A DNA stretch of 64,000 nucleotides, from the IMG/VR virus record IMGVR_UViG_3300043410_000857, positions 1,272-65,271 of that record; one strand, 5' to 3'. The notes beneath the pieces were generated by a model. That model made no database searches and was not told the DNA's origin. It was given only the letters and a program-made list of their open reading frames with translations. The stretch comes from a virus. Taxonomy: Duplodnaviria; Caudoviricetes. Below are positions 7,915 through 17,031 of this stretch, piece after piece. Positions within the stretch are counted from its first letter, which is position 1. Every line of letters starts with the position of its first letter. Position numbers and translations under genes: made by a program.

Positions 7915-8120
7915 AAGTAAAAGACCTAATAGAAAAGTTAAGAGTTATGCCAATGGACTACGATGTAAGGATTGAGTATGACAAATCTTTAAAAGAAATG
8001 GAGTCAATGGCACCGGAAGATTTCCTAGTAAACTTTTGGATTGATAATGTAGAACTTCACAAGCATGGTTCAAGTGGGTATGAAGAGTTTGGCGAAGTTG
8101 TGATAAGGGGGACAGAATGA
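7911..8120 (+). CDS. Hypothetical protein
   Basis: MKVKDLIEKL start common in small phage proteins; ATGA overlap. Confidence 0.65.
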   Translation: MKVKDLIEKLRVMPMDYDVRIEYDKSLKEMESMAPEDFLVNFWIDNVELHKHGSSGYEEFGEVVIRGTE

Positions 8121-8374
8121 TAGCGATTAACAACATAGAAGAACTAAAGAAGCATTGTAATGAAGACCCATACAACGAGTTTGTGATGCGTTTGAATGGT
8201 GGGTTTAGGTCAACCAAGCGTATCCAGTATTGGAAAGATGTTGACGCGTGGTACGTAGTACATGAGATTGACGATAGCGAAGTTGAATATGGTAGTACCA
8301 AAGAACTCATAGAAAACGAGCCAATGATTGTTAAGGCAATAGAGAACAACGCTTTTTATAAGGAGGATGTATGA
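8117..8374 (+). CDS. Hypothetical protein
   Basis: ATGA overlap in tightly packed operon. Confidence 0.65.
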   Translation: MIAINNIEELKKHCNEDPYNEFVMRLNGGFRSTKRIQYWKDVDAWYVVHEIDDSEVEYGSTKELIENEPMIVKAIENNAFYKEDV

Positions 8375-10025: not shown

Positions 10026-10354
10026 TGTAATGGAAGAAGTGCAAAAGGATATGGCAACAAGATATGATGCCGAGTTTAACAAGATTAGATTCTATGTGGA
10101 TACGGCGTATGAGTTAGGTTTATCACATGGTAGAGCCTCAGCAAAAACAGAAATCATTAACTTAATACAAGGGGATAACAAATGAAACGAGAACTAAAAA
10201 GCAAAATGGTATACGACGCATGGAAAGAATATGATAGGGAGATAACTATGAGTGAGTATGTGACCGTACCAAAGGCTAGGCTTCGCCGTTTAATTGTGAC
10301 AGAAGTGATTGCATGGGGAATTAGTGTGTTCCTATTACTAATAAGTGTGTTAAG

Positions 10355-14129: not shown

Positions 14130-14343
14130 TCTTGATACAGTAAAAGACTTAGTACAAGACGAATTAGAGTTAGCTAATAAAATTAATCAATACTTTAAAG
14201 AGAAGAAACCATTACATAGAAAAGATGTGTTAGATTATTTTGGTATTACAAAACATATGTTCTATAAATTAAAATATGCGAATGCTATTAAAGTACCTGC
14301 ATACATGACAACTAAACAAATAAGAATACATAGATATAAATGA
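14083..14343 (+). CDS. Hypothetical, possible HTH protein
   Basis: RKDVLDYFGITKHMFYKL resembles a helix-turn-helix. Confidence 0.5.
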   Translation: MDMMNLVNYVAKRHINLDTVKDLVQDELELANKINQYFKEKKPLHRKDVLDYFGITKHMFYKLKYANAIKVPAYMTTKQIRIHRYK

Positions 14344-14537
14344 TGAGTGATGAAGCAGATATAGCAAACGATTTAGCGCAACATGCAATTGATGTAGCCA
14401 TAAGGAATGCACATGATAAAGTCAAAAAACCTTCTAATCAGACAGGGTGTTGTATCTGGTGTGAAACACCGGTCAAAGATGATAGACGTTGGTGTTCGAT
14501 TGAATGCCGAAACGAATTTGAGAAATACGCAAACTAA
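14340..14537 (+). CDS. TraR/DksA-like C4 zinc-finger protein
   Basis: N-terminal DEADIA (DxxDxA) helix; CxxC...CxxxC. Confidence 0.7.
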   Translation: MMSDEADIANDLAQHAIDVAIRNAHDKVKKPSNQTGCCIWCETPVKDDRRWCSIECRNEFEKYAN

Positions 14538-14550
14538 GAGGAGAAAATTT

Positions 14551-14790
14551 GTGAATGACGCAAAATTACAAGGGTTAGAACCATGGCAAATGAAAATATT
14601 TGCAAAGAACGCAAAACGTGGATGGAGATTCTTCCAACCTGATTCGATTGAGAAGCCAACACCTCGTTCTGCTTATGAAGCTTGGGGTAGTAGTTATAAC
14701 CGAGATGACTTCGAGAAAAAAGAAAAACGCTACCAAAGAATTATGGCTTGTATATTTATCGTGGCTCTGATATTATTATCGATATTGTAA
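14551..14790 (+). CDS. Hypothetical protein with C-terminal TM helix
   Basis: GAGGAG RBS before GTG 14551; PRSAYEAWG motif. Confidence 0.55.
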   Translation: MNDAKLQGLEPWQMKIFAKNAKRGWRFFQPDSIEKPTPRSAYEAWGSSYNRDDFEKKEKRYQRIMACIFIVALILLSIL

Positions 14791-14796
14791 AGGTTA

Positions 14797-14868
14797 TGGG
14801 CGAAAGCACTTATATGTTTAAATTCGTGATGGTATTTTTGCTATATATTAACCGCGAGTAGCCCACCA
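14797..14868 (+). ncRNA. Candidate structured RNA A (loop-E stem, ACCA end)
   Basis: TGGGC-GAAAGC...GCGAGTA-GCCCA-CCA. Confidence 0.5.
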
Positions 14869-14879
14869 AAAATCCTACA

Positions 14880-14965
14880 ATGCAAGTAGGCCAGCCAGAG
14901 ATCATATACTCCTTATCGGCTGGGGTCAATGACGGCACCGCTATCTGTCGTTTGCATAAGATAGC
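14880..14965 (+). ncRNA. Candidate structured RNA B (three-way junction plus pseudoknot)
   Basis: ATGCAA/TTGCAT, CCAGCC/GGCTGG, AATGACGG/CTGTCGTT; loop GCTAT can pair with downstream ATAGC. Confidence 0.4.
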
Positions 14966-14972
14966 AAAGATA

Positions 14973-15148
14973 TGAGGGAAAGTAACACGGGCAACACGGA
15001 TGACGGCGACGCTGTTTAACAGTATCCACCCGCACATCGAGGTCGGGAAGTCTGCCTTATGCGTTAGAATTAACGTTGAGTGCTGTGACTGCAACCTTGG
15101 GAACCCGACGTGGCTAGTAGTGTACAGACTAGTATAAGTACCTCACCA
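14973..15148 (+). ncRNA. Candidate structured RNA C (multibranch, loop-E stem, ACCA end)
   Basis: TGAGG-GAAAGT...ATAAGTA-CCTCA-CCA; internal stems CGGG/CCCG, GGATG/TATCC, CTGTT/AACAG, GTCGGG/CCCGAC, CGTTA/TAACG, CTAGT/ACTAG. Confidence 0.55.
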
Positions 15149-15171
15149 ATTTAAAACGCGGAAGGGCGCAC

Positions 15172-17031
15172 ATGCAATTAGTAACACTAGACTTTGAGAC
15201 CTACTATGACGTAGGTTTTTCACTTTCAGGTTTAACCACAGAGGAGTACATCAGAGATGAAAGATTCCAAGTTATCGGCGTTGGTATTAAAATTAACGAA
15301 GGCGAAACGGAGTGGTATACGGGCAGTCAAGCCGGTGATGCGCTTAGTAAAATTAACTGGAAAGAATCCGCGCTCTTATGTCACAACACTCAGTTTGACG
15401 GTGGCATTCTGTCTTTCAGGTATGGTATTGTTCCTAGTTTATACCTTGATACTTTGTCTATGGCTCGCGCTATTAATGGCGTTGACGCCGGTGGAAGCCT
15501 TGCTTATTTGGTTGAAAGATATGAACTTGGCGCTAAAGGTACCGAAGTCGTTGACGCGAAAGGCAAGAGGTTAGAAGATTTTAACGATGACGATCTATTA
15601 AGATATGGTAGTTATTGTATCAACGACGTTGAACTCACATACAAGTTATTCCAAGTATTAGCACCGCAATTCCCCGAAGAAGAAATCAAACTTATTGACA
15701 TGACCTTGCGCATGTACACCGAGCCTACACTTGAGGTCGATGACGCCCTTTTACAAGCTAGGTTAGAAGAAGTCCAAACAGAGAAGCAGTTATTGTTACA
15801 AGGTTTAATGAGTAAACTCGAGTGTCAAACGGAAGAAGAAGTTCGTGCTAAGTTAGCATCGAATAAACAATTTGCAGAGCTCTTAGTTGAGCTTGGTATT
15901 ACGCCACCTACAAAAATAAGCCCAACAACAGGCAAAGAAACATTTGCATTAGCAAAAGGTGACCAAGCATTCTTAGATTTATGTGAACACGAAGATCCAT
16001 TTATTCAAGAACTTTGTCGCGTGAGGTTGGGTACTAAAAGTACTATAGAAGAATCTCGTATTGAAAGGTTCATCGGTATTGGTTCGCGTAATAAAGGTAA
16101 GCTTCCTATTCCGTTGAAGTATTATGGCGCACATACAGGTCGATGGGCAGGTTCAGATAAAGTTAACTTCCAAAACTTACCCGCAAGAGATAAGAAAAAG
16201 AAAGCCCTCAAGAACGCGGTCATCGCACCACAAGGACACCAAGTCATAAACTGTGACTCATCTCAAATTGAGGCTCGTGTTTTAGTTTGGGTAGCAGGAC
16301 AGAACGATGTATTGAATTGGTATGCAGAAGGTCGCGATGTATATTGTGAGTTTGCTACTAAAGTCTATGGTAAACCTATTACAAAGAAAGATAATACAGA
16401 ACGTGCCGTAGGTAAGACTTGTATTCTAGGACTAGGTTATGGCACAGGATGGGCAAAGCTACAACATACACTTAAAATCGCTGCCGGTGTAGAGTTTGAT
16501 GAACAAGAATGTAAACGCCTCGTAGGTGTGTATCGCGAGGTTAATGATAAGGTAATCCAGTTATGGAAAGCATGCGATGATGCATTACAAGATATTGCAA
16601 TATGGCCAAAAGGTAAAGAGCCATATCATCTAGGTCCTACAAAAGCTTTACTTGTAACACCTAAGGGCATACAATTACCGAACGGATTATATATTACATA
16701 TCCTGGACTTACGTGGGATACTTCAGAATCAAAGAGTAAATTTGTATATAAATCAAGACGGGGCTTTAATAGTATATGGGGTGGATCCGTAGTGGAGAAT
16801 GTGATTCAAGCGTTAGCCCGTATTATTGTAGGCCAACAGATGTTAGAGATTAATAAAAAGTATCGTCCTGTGTTAACGGTTCACGATGCGGTAGTCTGTG
16901 TTGTTCCGAAGATAGAAGTAAATGAAGCCCTTTCCTTCATAACTACGACTATGTCTAATCCTCCTAGTTGGGCAGCCGGACTACCTGTAGCGTGTGAAGC
17001 AAAGCATGGCGATAGTTATGGAGATTGTTAA
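15172..17031 (+). CDS. polA: DNA polymerase family A with 3'-5' exonuclease
   Basis: ExoI LDFETY, HNTQFD, YCINDV; HTGRW, NFQNLP; motif A DSSQIEAR, motif B RAVGKTCILGLGYG, motif C TVHDAV. Confidence 0.95.
   Translation: MQLVTLDFETYYDVGFSLSGLTTEEYIRDERFQVIGVGIKINEGETEWYTGSQAGDALSKINWKESALLCHNTQFDGGILSFRYGIVPSLYLDTLSMARAINGVDAGGSLAYLVERYELGAKGTEVVDAKGKRLEDFNDDDLLRYGSYCINDVELTYKLFQVLAPQFPEEEIKLIDMTLRMYTEPTLEVDDALLQARLEEVQTEKQLLLQGLMSKLECQTEEEVRAKLASNKQFAELLVELGITPPTKISPTTGKETFALAKGDQAFLDLCEHEDPFIQELCRVRLGTKSTIEESRIERFIGIGSRNKGKLPIPLKYYGAHTGRWAGSDKVNFQNLPARDKKKKALKNAVIAPQGHQVINCDSSQIEARVLVWVAGQNDVLNWYAEGRDVYCEFATKVYGKPITKKDNTERAVGKTCILGLGYGTGWAKLQHTLKIAAGVEFDEQECKRLVGVYREVNDKVIQLWKACDDALQDIAIWPKGKEPYHLGPTKALLVTPKGIQLPNGLYITYPGLTWDTSESKSKFVYKSRRGFNSIWGGSVVENVIQALARIIVGQQMLEINKKYRPVLTVHDAVVCVVPKIEVNEALSFITTTMSNPPSWAAGLPVACEAKHGDSYGDC

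Follow-up and report, generated by a model that had tools for sequence, protein, structure and literature searches.

In the 64-kb window analyzed here (the whole stretch of DNA, 64,000 nucleotides), which comes from a freshwater phage, a gap of 381 nt separates the block of early small ORFs from the genes for replication. Three independent RNA modules, A, B, and C, fill this gap 5′ of the DNA polymerase gene, on the + strand and in the same direction as the genes, and they form a modular array that varies in which modules are present. Element A, and less surely element C, carries a rod-shaped scaffold found in hundreds of uncultured phages and prophages, and of which we collected 153 distinct copies; element B belongs to a separate family. 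The scaffold is a family of RNAs with a common structure on a definite strand, it occurs in modular arrays, and it is gained and lost between close relatives. We tentatively regard its members as small stable RNAs that tRNA-type maturation of their ends would release, the rod being a putative protein-binding handle, a reading of the sequences that we hold to be possible, if short of probable.

The gene upstream of the array is a 79-aa small ORF with a GTG start (14551..14790, + strand), which ends the early block, is kept in relatives, and has no PHROG match. The ORF 5′ of it encodes a DksA-like zinc finger (14340-14537, phrog_54). On the other side of the array, a family-A DNA polymerase (15172..17031, + strand) opens a replication module that continues with 2OG-Fe oxygenases, a Cas4-like exonuclease, a helicase, and a primase. 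The cultured relatives of this polymerase are all distant (at most 35% identity, KPP25-like), and a BLAST search of a 1-kb region against GenBank phages gave no match. A scan for promoters and terminators around the array found nothing on the + strand and two terminator-like hairpins on the − strand only. None of the 21 window ORFs scanned is a tRNA-processing or RNA-binding gene.

From the outside in, the scaffold consists of a terminal stem of 4–5 bp (P1), an S-turn, a purine-rich and nearly invariant core, an inner stem (P3), and a tip of any size. P1 is formed by both ends of the RNA, and a single-stranded RCC follows directly on its 3′ side. The near-invariant core reads GAAAGCGGAUGCUG ... 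YGYAGCGAGUA. Its 5′ 14-mer led to 95 distinct elements that also have the 3′ core, 81 of them with a closing stem of at least four pairs, and a scan anchored on the 3′ side only gave 103 distinct elements in which the 5′ core, itself unselected, is almost invariant; the exact 14-mer is present in 113 of the 153 copies. In an alignment of 40 sequences, AGUA and the first GAA are invariant, and the four inner pairs of P1 are standard throughout and of GC, CG, UA, UG, and AU types. The covariation of P1 in these sequences is 0.309, compared with 0.105 in shuffles, and none of 500 shuffles reaches 0.309. All five pairs of P3 have changed on both sides among 65 distinct sequences (0/500 shuffles). 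The 723 P1 pairs of the 153 copies include 15 G-U and no A-C, which identifies the strand of the RNA.

The tail is ACC in 128 copies and GCC in five. Among the 151 copies with enough flank, the base that follows is U in 59%, C in 27%, A in 14%, and never G. Hence the conserved feature is RCC and not CCA, and the tRNA-like ACCA end that the earlier note had seen in elements A and C is not a property of the family, which keeps ACC or GCC in 133/153. On the 5′ side, positions −5 to −1 are A/U-rich, with at most 5% G from −4 to −1 (151 copies); both flanks are A/U-rich and nearly G-free. The spacing to the upstream stop codon has no fixed value. The tips range from a bare GAAA tetraloop to tRNA-like bodies, and the minimal, GAAA-capped forms (loci L335 and L353) have only 42–43 nt. 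The cargo is thus dispensable, and the function probably lies in the scaffold itself. The idea of a constant handle with variable cargo, also from the earlier note, stands as far as the handle goes, since this is constant and covarying whether the tip is a 4-nt loop, a tRNA-like body, or something in between, but the 42–43-nt forms do without cargo.

Element A (14797..14868, + strand, 72 nt) is a subtype of the scaffold with an AU-rich interior and reads UGGGC-GAAAGC...GCGAGUA-GCCCA-CCA. Its P1 pairs 14797-14801 with 14861-14865, its S-turn places GAA (14802-14804) opposite AGUA (14857-14860), its P2 (GC) pairs 14806-14807 with 14854-14855, and its CCA tail occupies 14866-14868; alternatively, A14865 is unpaired and followed by CC. 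The covariance model R1, built from unrelated copies without any A-type copy, scores element A at 28.5 bits (E 6.1e-6), the sole significant match in the window. As no A-type copy went into the model, this places A in the scaffold family. The pair adjoining the S-turn in 26 A-type copies is CG in 21, UA in two, UG in one, and CA in two; element A thus has homologs with compensatory changes. No conserved predicted structure was found in the AU-rich interior of these 26 copies. The 3′ 14-mer of A gave mostly chance matches inside ORFs of IMG/VR, and a few that led to the wider family. The inner core, GCGGAUGCUG ... YGYAGC with the covarying P3, is absent from A except for the GC/GC of P2. As A keeps only P2 and C none of this inner core, both are variants of the outer scaffold.

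Element C (14973..15148, + strand, 176 nt) has the outer scaffold only and reads UGAGG-GAAAGU...AUAAGUA-CCUCA-CCA, with P1 at 14973-14977 and 15141-15145 (known from one sequence), GAA (14978-14980) opposite AGUA (15137-15140), and the CCA tail at 15146-15148. The anatomy that had first linked the two elements is correct: both strings are present, their 5-bp closing stems differ at three of five pairs and yet both pair, and each has GAA opposite AGUA. Both tails read A-CC-A followed by A or U. The membership of C is less sure than that of A. R1 does not report C at E ≤ 10, a miss that carries little weight either way because the model heavily penalizes the 152-nt insert, and the minimum free energy of C is no better than that of shuffles (z = +0.70; 159 of 200 shuffles fold at least as well). 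No homologs of C, its 152-nt interior included, were found with its 5′ 16-mer in IMG/VR (five matches, all by chance) or with a two-part pattern in metagenome contigs (at least 118 loci), where none of the 72 distinct matches listed is C-like and the best global score among those listed is 17 for the 176-nt query. C also contains an ATG ORF of 45 aa (15000-15137). One might thus take its likeness to A for chance and C for an unrelated insert, possibly with this ORF. We consider this improbable, because no SD stands at a usable distance from the ORF and because a pattern defined on the family and not taken from C (a stem of at least four pairs, GAAWG, AGUA, the complementary stem, and RCC) arises in only 10 of 20,000 shuffles when the remaining 303 nt of the gap are randomized. 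The same pattern occurs three times on the + strand of the window and never on the − strand, in A, in C, and at 10219-10266 inside a 58-aa ORF. Natural variation also argues against chance: DNA reads of a variant lack exactly C, with a DNA joint 14964->15144, and this precise deletion takes the spacer plus the whole stem-to-stem unit. The spacer, AAGAUA (14967..14972, + strand), moves with C in this variant, and a similar one, AGAUUA, stands 5′ of the module that follows B in loci L056 and L110. Two RNA libraries contain small parts of the region; a 201-nt contig from one RNA-library run covers 14984-15185, is blind to ends, strand, and level, and may be DNA carry-over.

Element B (14869..14966, + strand) belongs to a family of pseudoknot RNAs separate from the scaffold. 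Its helix H1 pairs 14874-14878 with 14886-14890, and the loop of H1 (AUGCAA, 14880-14885) pairs with UUGCAU at 14952-14957. H2 (14891-14896 with 14918-14923) has CUCCUU in its loop (14909-14914), and S1 (14932-14937 with 14946-14951) and S2 (14940-14945 with 14960-14965) follow. Among 34 sequences, 99.0% of the cells are paired, nine pairs have changed on both sides, and none of 500 shuffles reaches the observed value. Plant viruses of the TYMV type have pseudoknotted tRNA-like 3′ ends, which element B resembles in its H-type pseudoknot of 6+6 pairs at the 3′ end and in the ACCA of some copies. It differs from them in its loop–loop pairing, its CUCC loop, its DNA-phage origin, and its tail, which is not conserved (ACCA, ACUA, ACCU, CCUU, and AAGA are all present).

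The modules are combined differently in different phages. The order is A-short+B+A-long in L056 and L110, X+A+B in L005, and A+B+C in the window, and DNA contigs from other samples have A only, A+B, or all but exactly C. Each of five near-complete phage records has one or two scaffold copies per genome, and the elements sit in early/replication operons in the direction of the genes. The 64 downstream ORFs scanned match 37 Pfam families, none of them matched by more than five ORFs, and include HTH types, MazG, polymerases, and nucleases. These functions are unrelated; hence the scaffold is not gene-specific. A tRNA gene lies nearby at two of the 70 loci checked, and in L264 the scaffold RNA is 5 nt 5′ of a tRNA-Met on the same strand. 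The motif is abundant in freshwater Burkholderiales phages, and the chromosome of Comamonas trifloxystrobinivorans J-3 has a copy (L630, 8034-8095). A stand-alone copy on a chromosome, outside any phage, is also known. A host housekeeping RNA as the source of the scaffold finds little backing, since R1 matches 2 of 101 Comamonas-family genomes, but this is a weak negative, as only 45 candidates were scored per genome; of five genomes in which a copy is known, two were missed. Among GenBank phages, BLAST with a canonical element gave only chance 25-nt matches, in ICP1, and R1 has no match, with filters off, in the cultured phages that share the Cas4-like exonuclease neighbor (CGphi29, PB15, 1N2-2, and MW202867).

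Neither A nor C could be assigned to a tRNA or a named family, as the earlier note had anticipated. ARAGORN predicts no tRNA gene in the window, nor any in ten loci whose elements carry T-arm-like tips. Rfam 15 has no match in the 64 kb at the gathering score; at E ≤ 10 the sole match between 14500 and 15400 is Rev72, inside polA (E 5.1), with none over the elements, and Rfam also matches nothing in 12 loci whose copies are canonical, A-type, or minimal. Exact-string literature searches found nothing for the core 14-mers and, among the matches listed for the core 10-mers, apparently only chance or primer matches; a keyword search found no description of the scaffold family in the portions of text it returned, and a term search of two 2026 preprints gave nothing of relevance. 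The family may already be among the 8,495 unnamed candidate RNAs from IMG/VR that PMC10690425 catalogs.

The scaffold resembles several known systems in part. Like T4 rnaC and rnaD (species 1 and 2 RNA), it is phage-encoded, non-decoding, small, and arrayed with other RNA genes on one strand. The annotated 3′ end of rnaD is CACC followed by A, and rnaC has a T-arm. However, rnaC and rnaD are located within a tRNA cluster, whereas only two of the 70 scaffold loci checked have a tRNA nearby, the core is not common to both, and the T4 region has no significant R1 match (the one overlapping rnaC has 4.6 bits and E 1.2). The arrangement of GAA opposite AGUA between helices is that of the bulged-G, loop E, or sarcin-ricin motif, a building block of many RNAs that in the scaffold adjoins the terminal stem. 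The GAGA tip of the ribosomal loop is absent, so the scaffold is no copy of the toxin target. The PeSL cassettes of T4-type phages consist of a promoter plus a stem-loop and are, as the array is, short repeated non-coding cassettes among early genes, present or absent between relatives; the array differs from them in having no promoter match and a specific, covarying RNA fold.

Among the roles that had been suggested from the two elements, maturation by the tRNA machinery fits the anatomy best. Bacterial RNase P has non-tRNA substrates, such as the 4.5S RNA precursor, the C4 RNA of P1/P7, and the CI RNA of P4, in which it reads a terminal helix made of both RNA ends and then a short C-rich single-stranded 3′ tail. 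The scaffold has both, with no sequence or model likeness to these RNAs (neither the SRP RNA nor the C4 model of Rfam matches it). RNase P has a GGU loop that pairs with the RCC of a substrate, and RNase T stalls at CC. The modules would thus leave the early transcript by the route that tRNAs and other small stable RNAs take: RNase P, its GGU loop paired with RCC, would cleave where the terminal stem begins on its 5′ side, and exonucleases would trim the 3′ end until they stall at the CC beside the helix. The freed rod would present its invariant S-turn and core as a candidate protein-binding site, and cutting might also part the early mRNA from the replication mRNA. The RCC tail, the G-free 3′ neighbor, and the A/U-rich 5′ flank across copies speak for maturation, as do the discreteness of the modules and the tRNA-Met next to the scaffold in L264. 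Against it, 103 of 153 copies have C at −1, whereas bacterial RNase P prefers U, the terminal stem has only 4–5 bp, and a tip acting as tRNA elbow would be separated from the putative cut by about 20 stacked layers instead of 12. In addition, the encoded fourth base is rarely A, and tRNA genes are near only 2/70 loci.

Cleavage within an operon, a few bases past a stop codon and 7–27 nt ahead of a start codon, could equally well control translation. Alternatively, the element could be a cis-acting leader: its rod, as the aptamer of a riboswitch or as an operator bound by a protein, would govern translation or termination of the next gene, with P1 and the C-rich 3′ strand as the switch. Rod-shaped aptamers with conserved internal loops exist in the THF-II and xanthine riboswitches, the downstream start codon is 6–27 nt past the tail in 125 of 151 copies, and an SD-like AGGA follows many of them. 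In Comamonas J-3, an intrinsic terminator stands about 35 nt 3′ of the element, and its 5′ half repeats the CCACC of the element's 3′ end, which makes an alternative pairing possible. Yet the few copies compared by eye indicate no alternative pairing conserved across the family, the SD is outside the structure, and the RCC tail and G-free flanks are kept whatever follows. The unrelated downstream functions, the tandem modules, and the arrays with other RNAs are also unexpected of a leader, which we therefore think unlikely, if worth keeping in mind.

A decoy is less likely still. The short helix with RCC would then imitate a tRNA acceptor end on the invariant S-turn rod, and the RNAs, shed from early transcripts by host tRNA-maturation enzymes, would, as decoys or sponges, capture a host factor whose targets are S-turns or the 3′ ends of tRNAs, such as a defense toxin that modifies or cuts CCA. 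Such a role would explain why the elements lie among early genes and why close relatives gain and lose them rapidly. We give a little less credit to a transcription signal at the early/middle gene boundary, with a cis effect on RNA polymerase like that of nut sites or of the put RNAs of phage HK022, which the scaffold brings to mind. The one or two copies per genome in the five near-complete records, the position in early/replication operons in gene direction, and the window array exactly at the early/replication boundary would suit it, but no + strand terminator is predicted around this array, one chromosomal copy stands outside any phage, and tRNA-like tips and tRNA adjacency have no place in it.

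It seems to us quite improbable that the scaffold is a small self-cleaving ribozyme of a new kind, which would sever the operon transcript at its own 5′ edge. About 25 nearly invariant nucleotides between two freely covarying helices, a minimal form of 42 nt, and an intergenic place in phage operons, typical of small ribozymes, recall one. Nevertheless, the simple rod has no pseudoknot or junction joining distant parts, its internal loops are just three layers apart, A-type and C-type copies without the inner core keep their ends, and no known ribozyme family of Rfam matches. Least probable is a feature of the DNA itself, either a recombination linker or the boundary of a mobile cassette, conserved through gene-module exchange and not through RNA function, as suggested by the presence or absence of A, B, C, or the small zinc-finger ORF at the same site among close relatives, module joints at or beside (A)CCA, and the many different genes 3′ of the element, for compensatory changes maintain P1 and P3, the G-U pairs are on one strand only, the S-turn is an RNA motif, and mobility is compatible with an RNA function.

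The preservation of about 25 near-invariant nucleotides over hundreds of otherwise unrelated phage and prophage genomes points to a specific partner, be it a protein, an enzyme, or a ligand. The motif is small, abundant, and present in at least one cultured bacterium and is therefore directly testable. The locus shows non-coding modules being shuffled as cassettes at one hotspot. If the tRNA-type maturation is true, phages use RNase P-type punctuation within protein-coding operons, and if the decoy reading is, the scaffold would be a new class of RNA in phage counter-defense.

The window is a nearly complete 65-kb phage genome with terminal repeats, of freshwater metagenome origin, and its + strand genes run from ~3 kb to 26.8 kb. 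An early block of small ORFs, including an anti-restriction protein, a cell-wall hydrolase, a DksA-like zinc finger (14340–14537, + strand) and a 79-aa ORF (14551–14790, + strand), is followed by a 381-nt gap (14791–15171) and then directly by a family-A DNA polymerase (15172–17031, + strand). Past the polymerase, two 2OG-Fe oxygenases, a Cas4-like exonuclease, a helicase and a primase lie on the same strand. The gap holds elements A (14797–14868), B (14869–14966) and C (14973–15148), A and C reading exactly as the earlier note had given them. As that note expected, ARAGORN finds no tRNA in the window, and Rfam 15 gives no match at gathering score and none over the elements at E ≤ 10. Folding energy alone is a weak signal in this region (z-scores: A, −1.94; the A-to-C stretch, −1.36; C, +0.70, no better than shuffles).

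A search of IMG/VR with the 3′ end of A returned mostly chance matches in ORFs, plus four elements that have a much longer conserved core in common with the one at L041 (L numbers denote collected IMG/VR and GTDB loci). Scanning for the 5′ 14-mer of this core (GAAAGCGGATGCTG) gave at least 119 loci; at least 95 distinct elements also have the 3′ core, and at least 81 a complementary closing stem of at least 4 pairs. Because the 5′ core was fixed in that scan, a reciprocal one was run from the 3′ side (GCAGCGAGTACCCC), which turned up a 5′ partner for 103 distinct elements and none for 19 matches. The latter are mostly chance matches in ORFs, but L191 and L257 are genuine copies lost by the filter and L357 is truncated at the locus edge. 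The 5′ core is nearly invariant although unselected in the second scan, and the exact 14-mer occurs in 113 of the 153 distinct pooled copies. The idea of a modular scaffold was right, and the family is much larger than a first reading of the window could reveal.

From the outside in, the scaffold consists of the closing stem P1 (4 pairs in 78 copies, 5 in 62), the S-turn (GAA opposite AGUA), an A-G pair and two G-C pairs (P2); inside P2 come a purine-rich internal loop (GGAUG opposite YGYA), the stem P3 and a variable tip. When 40 elements are aligned with MAFFT (A1), all 40 have standard pairs at the four inner P1 positions, with types GC, CG, UA, UG and AU. Their covariation score is 0.309 versus 0.105 ± 0.014 for shuffles (0/500 reach the observed value), and shifting the partner by 1–3 columns lowers pairing from 81.7% to 31–47%. 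For P3 (alignment A2, 65 distinct sequences), 5/5 pairs changed on both sides and 0/500 shuffles reach the score, in an alignment that was fitted to the model and in which the 3′ side reads ACGCA or UGCA, one base apart in length, so that many cells are unpaired. There are 15 G-U among 723 P1 pairs, mismatches being absent by construction; since these would be A-C on the opposite strand, the + strand is the one that folds. The RNA fold is real, strand-specific and strongly conserved. Its tip ranges from a bare GAAA tetraloop, in whole elements of 42–43 nt (L335, L353), to more than 90 nt, so that what is conserved is the rod, and the tip can be dispensed with. Of the constant handle and variable cargo proposed in the earlier note, the handle is indeed conserved, whereas the GAAA-capped forms make the cargo optional. 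Some tips carry a T-arm, or a D-arm, mini-arm and T-arm (L235/L403, L348, L362, L191), and ARAGORN calls no tRNA in ten loci with arm-bearing tips.

Of 153 copies, 128 have ACC and 5 have GCC directly 3′ of P1, so the conserved feature is an RCC tail rather than the tRNA-like CCA end first supposed. Among the 151 copies with enough flank, +1 is A in 90%, +2 C in 91% and +3 C in 93%, while +4 is U in 59%, C in 27%, A in 14% and G in 0%, and +5 to +8 are A/U-rich (G ≤5%). On the 5′ side of these 151 copies, −5 to −2 are mostly U or A, −1 is C in 68% and U in 21%, and G is ≤5% from −4 to −1. The tail leaves P1 at the end remote from the invariant core and so cannot contact that core in cis; most likely it is read in trans. 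An A-run and then a GC hairpin without a U-run often trail the tail (L180, 1850–1895; L235, 6762–6795). In the window this occurs at 14866–14890 and 15146–15171. On the opposite strand such a site is terminator-like, and a promoter/terminator scan of the window lists two of them on the − strand.

The covariance model R1, built from A1, which contains no A-type copy, was run on the window with filters off. Its single significant match is 14791–14873 (28.5 bits, E 6.1e-6), the runner-up scoring 12.8 bits (E 0.16). A retains P1, S-turn, P2 and tail, the inner core and P3 being replaced by a conserved AU-rich stretch in which RNAalifold finds no shared structure across 26 A-type copies; in these, the P1 pair adjoining the S-turn is CG 21 times, UA twice, UG once and CA twice. 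C is not reported by R1 in the window and has no homologue among the matches listed from IMG/VR and metagenome contigs. It retains P1, GAAAG, AGUA and A-CC. When the 303 nt downstream of A were shuffled 20,000 times, the outer pattern, as defined by the family, arose in only 10 shuffles. Outside A and C, this pattern occurs once in 128 kb (both strands), at 10219–10266, in a 58-aa ORF and with G-U-rich pairing, and is taken as chance. In DNA contigs of a different sample, a joint between 14964 and 15144 deletes exactly the 6-nt spacer and the stem-to-stem unit of C and restores the B end of L005. These findings support C as a probable outer-scaffold member, and a mere chance likeness to A is very unlikely. 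A 45-aa Cys-rich ATG ORF (15000–15137) lies entirely within C, with no Shine-Dalgarno at usable distance; in it, the natural variant 15099 G>A would put Arg in place of Gly.

B is a widespread RNA family apart from the scaffold. Searching with a gapped pattern based on the 3′ portion of B gave 99 loci, with ~35 true copies (including L414, L415, L430, L433, L443, L455 and L466); many have no adjacent A element and some are tandem (L429, L457, L486). The fold proposed from 34 aligned copies (A3) has a hairpin H1, a variable hairpin H2 and an H-type pseudoknot of S1 and S2 (6 pairs each), with the invariant H1 loop (AAUGCAA) pairing with the pseudoknot loop. The H2 loop usually contains CUCC, resembling an anti-Shine-Dalgarno. 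Pairing holds in 99.0% of cells, with 9 pairs changed on both sides and 0/500 shuffles reaching the score; S2 and most of the loop-loop pairing say little because they are fixed by the search pattern, and the covariation is carried by H1 (5/5 pairs) and S1 (3/6). The tail varies (ACCA, ACUA, ACCU, CCUU, AAGA), hence the ACCA of some relatives is not a feature of this family.

A polymerase search of IMG/VR gave 42 loci with 59–87% identity, of which 40 were examined upstream, L027 and L042 being excluded as their match begins at the locus edge. A scaffold element precedes the polymerase in 13/40 (L002, L003, L004, L005, L007, L009, L010, L012, L013, L018, L028, L036, L041), and at that position the remaining loci have either a short gap with no element or a small zinc-finger ORF. 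In L011, L019, L021, L023 and L024, a ~90-aa Cys-rich (zinc-finger-like) ORF replaces the RNA array upstream of polA; the site is thus a hotspot for varied insertions. The arrays consist of A alone (L002 and others), A + B (L003, L004, L007, L009 and others), A-short + B + A-long (L056, L110), an extra module X + A + B (L005), and A + B + C in the window, and contigs of other freshwater samples have the same locus in A-only, A + B and C-less forms. The extra element of L005 (UGGGG-GAAUG...UAAGUA-CCCCA-CCA) has a closing stem and interior unlike A. A subtype with GAAUGA instead of GAAAGC on the 5′ side and another interior is seen in L005 (2396–2467) and L407, where L407 combines such a 5′ side with the 3′ core of canonical elements. 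L041, a GC-rich phage with 60% polymerase identity, has an element ending in ACC and then U. Elsewhere, L264 (3700–4180, − strand) carries a one-strand array of a scaffold RNA, a stem-closed module (GUGUUGG...CCAACAC) without S-turn core, a second scaffold RNA and, 5 nt after the tail of the latter, a tRNA-Met; tRNA genes are near 2/70 scaffold loci. L197 (7923–8078) has two elements in direct succession with 7 nt between them, and in L182 a second, diverged copy seems to lie upstream. Scaffold elements are discrete modules with rapid gain and loss.

These elements are co-directional with neighbouring genes, and in most of 89 loci the upstream ORF stops a few bases away and the downstream one starts within ~30 nt. 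The genes downstream are diverse: the 64 ORFs scanned include HTH regulators, MazG, parts of family A/B polymerases, PD-(D/E)XK nucleases and dNMP kinase. Near-complete phage records have 1–2 copies each (n = 5), and four cultured phages that share the exonuclease neighbour have none. In GTDB the full core is on 30 contigs, mostly Burkholderiales MAGs, with two isolates. The Limnohabitans and Xylophilus copies are surrounded by phage genes. The chromosome of Comamonas trifloxystrobinivorans J-3 has a canonical element (L630, 8034–8095, in the region 8034–8160) among LuxR/LysR regulator, amidase and MFS transporter genes, with no phage matches and no recognisable prophage around it; ~35 nt after it stands an intrinsic terminator, in whose 5′ half the CCACC from the 3′ end of the element recurs. 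R1 was positive in 2/101 genomes of the Comamonas family, at low sensitivity (45 candidates scored per genome).

The absence of a named family, put forward in the earlier note, holds for the scaffold as a whole, which has no match in Rfam 15; the S-turn is a building block common to many RNAs and not a family. No published description was found in the portions of the literature searched by keywords and exact core strings. PMC10690425 describes 8,495 unnamed candidate RNAs from IMG/VR, and the motif may already be among them.

With a terminal helix made from both ends, an unpaired R, CC and G-free A/U-rich flanks, the scaffold has the same end anatomy as bacterial stable-RNA precursors. In the tail, exactly R-C-C is paired by the GGU loop of RNase P, the last A taking no part, and RNase T-type trimming halts at a CC adjoining a helix; 4.5S, C4 and CI RNAs mature in such a manner. 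We tentatively favor such a maturation, with the S-turn and core as a putative protein-binding surface. It would explain why RCC is kept and the fourth base free, maturation reading RCC and not the last A, why a tRNA is tolerated 5 nt after a scaffold, and why modules follow each other like beads on a string. Against it stand the C at −1, the short terminal stem and the tight fit to stop and start codons, which equally suits a translational leader. A riboswitch or operator is an unlikely reading. A put-like transcription signal is improbable, a ribozyme still more so, and a cassette boundary at the DNA level only is the least probable. Among the nearest in kind to the scaffold are non-tRNA RNase P substrates and T4 rnaC/rnaD, R1 giving nothing significant in the T4 region fetched. 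The family is rated as lying within the phage small stable or tRNA-end-like RNAs. Under stable-RNA-type maturation, its modules would be released as small stable RNAs, and the invariant S-turn and core would be their working surface, most likely a protein-binding site.
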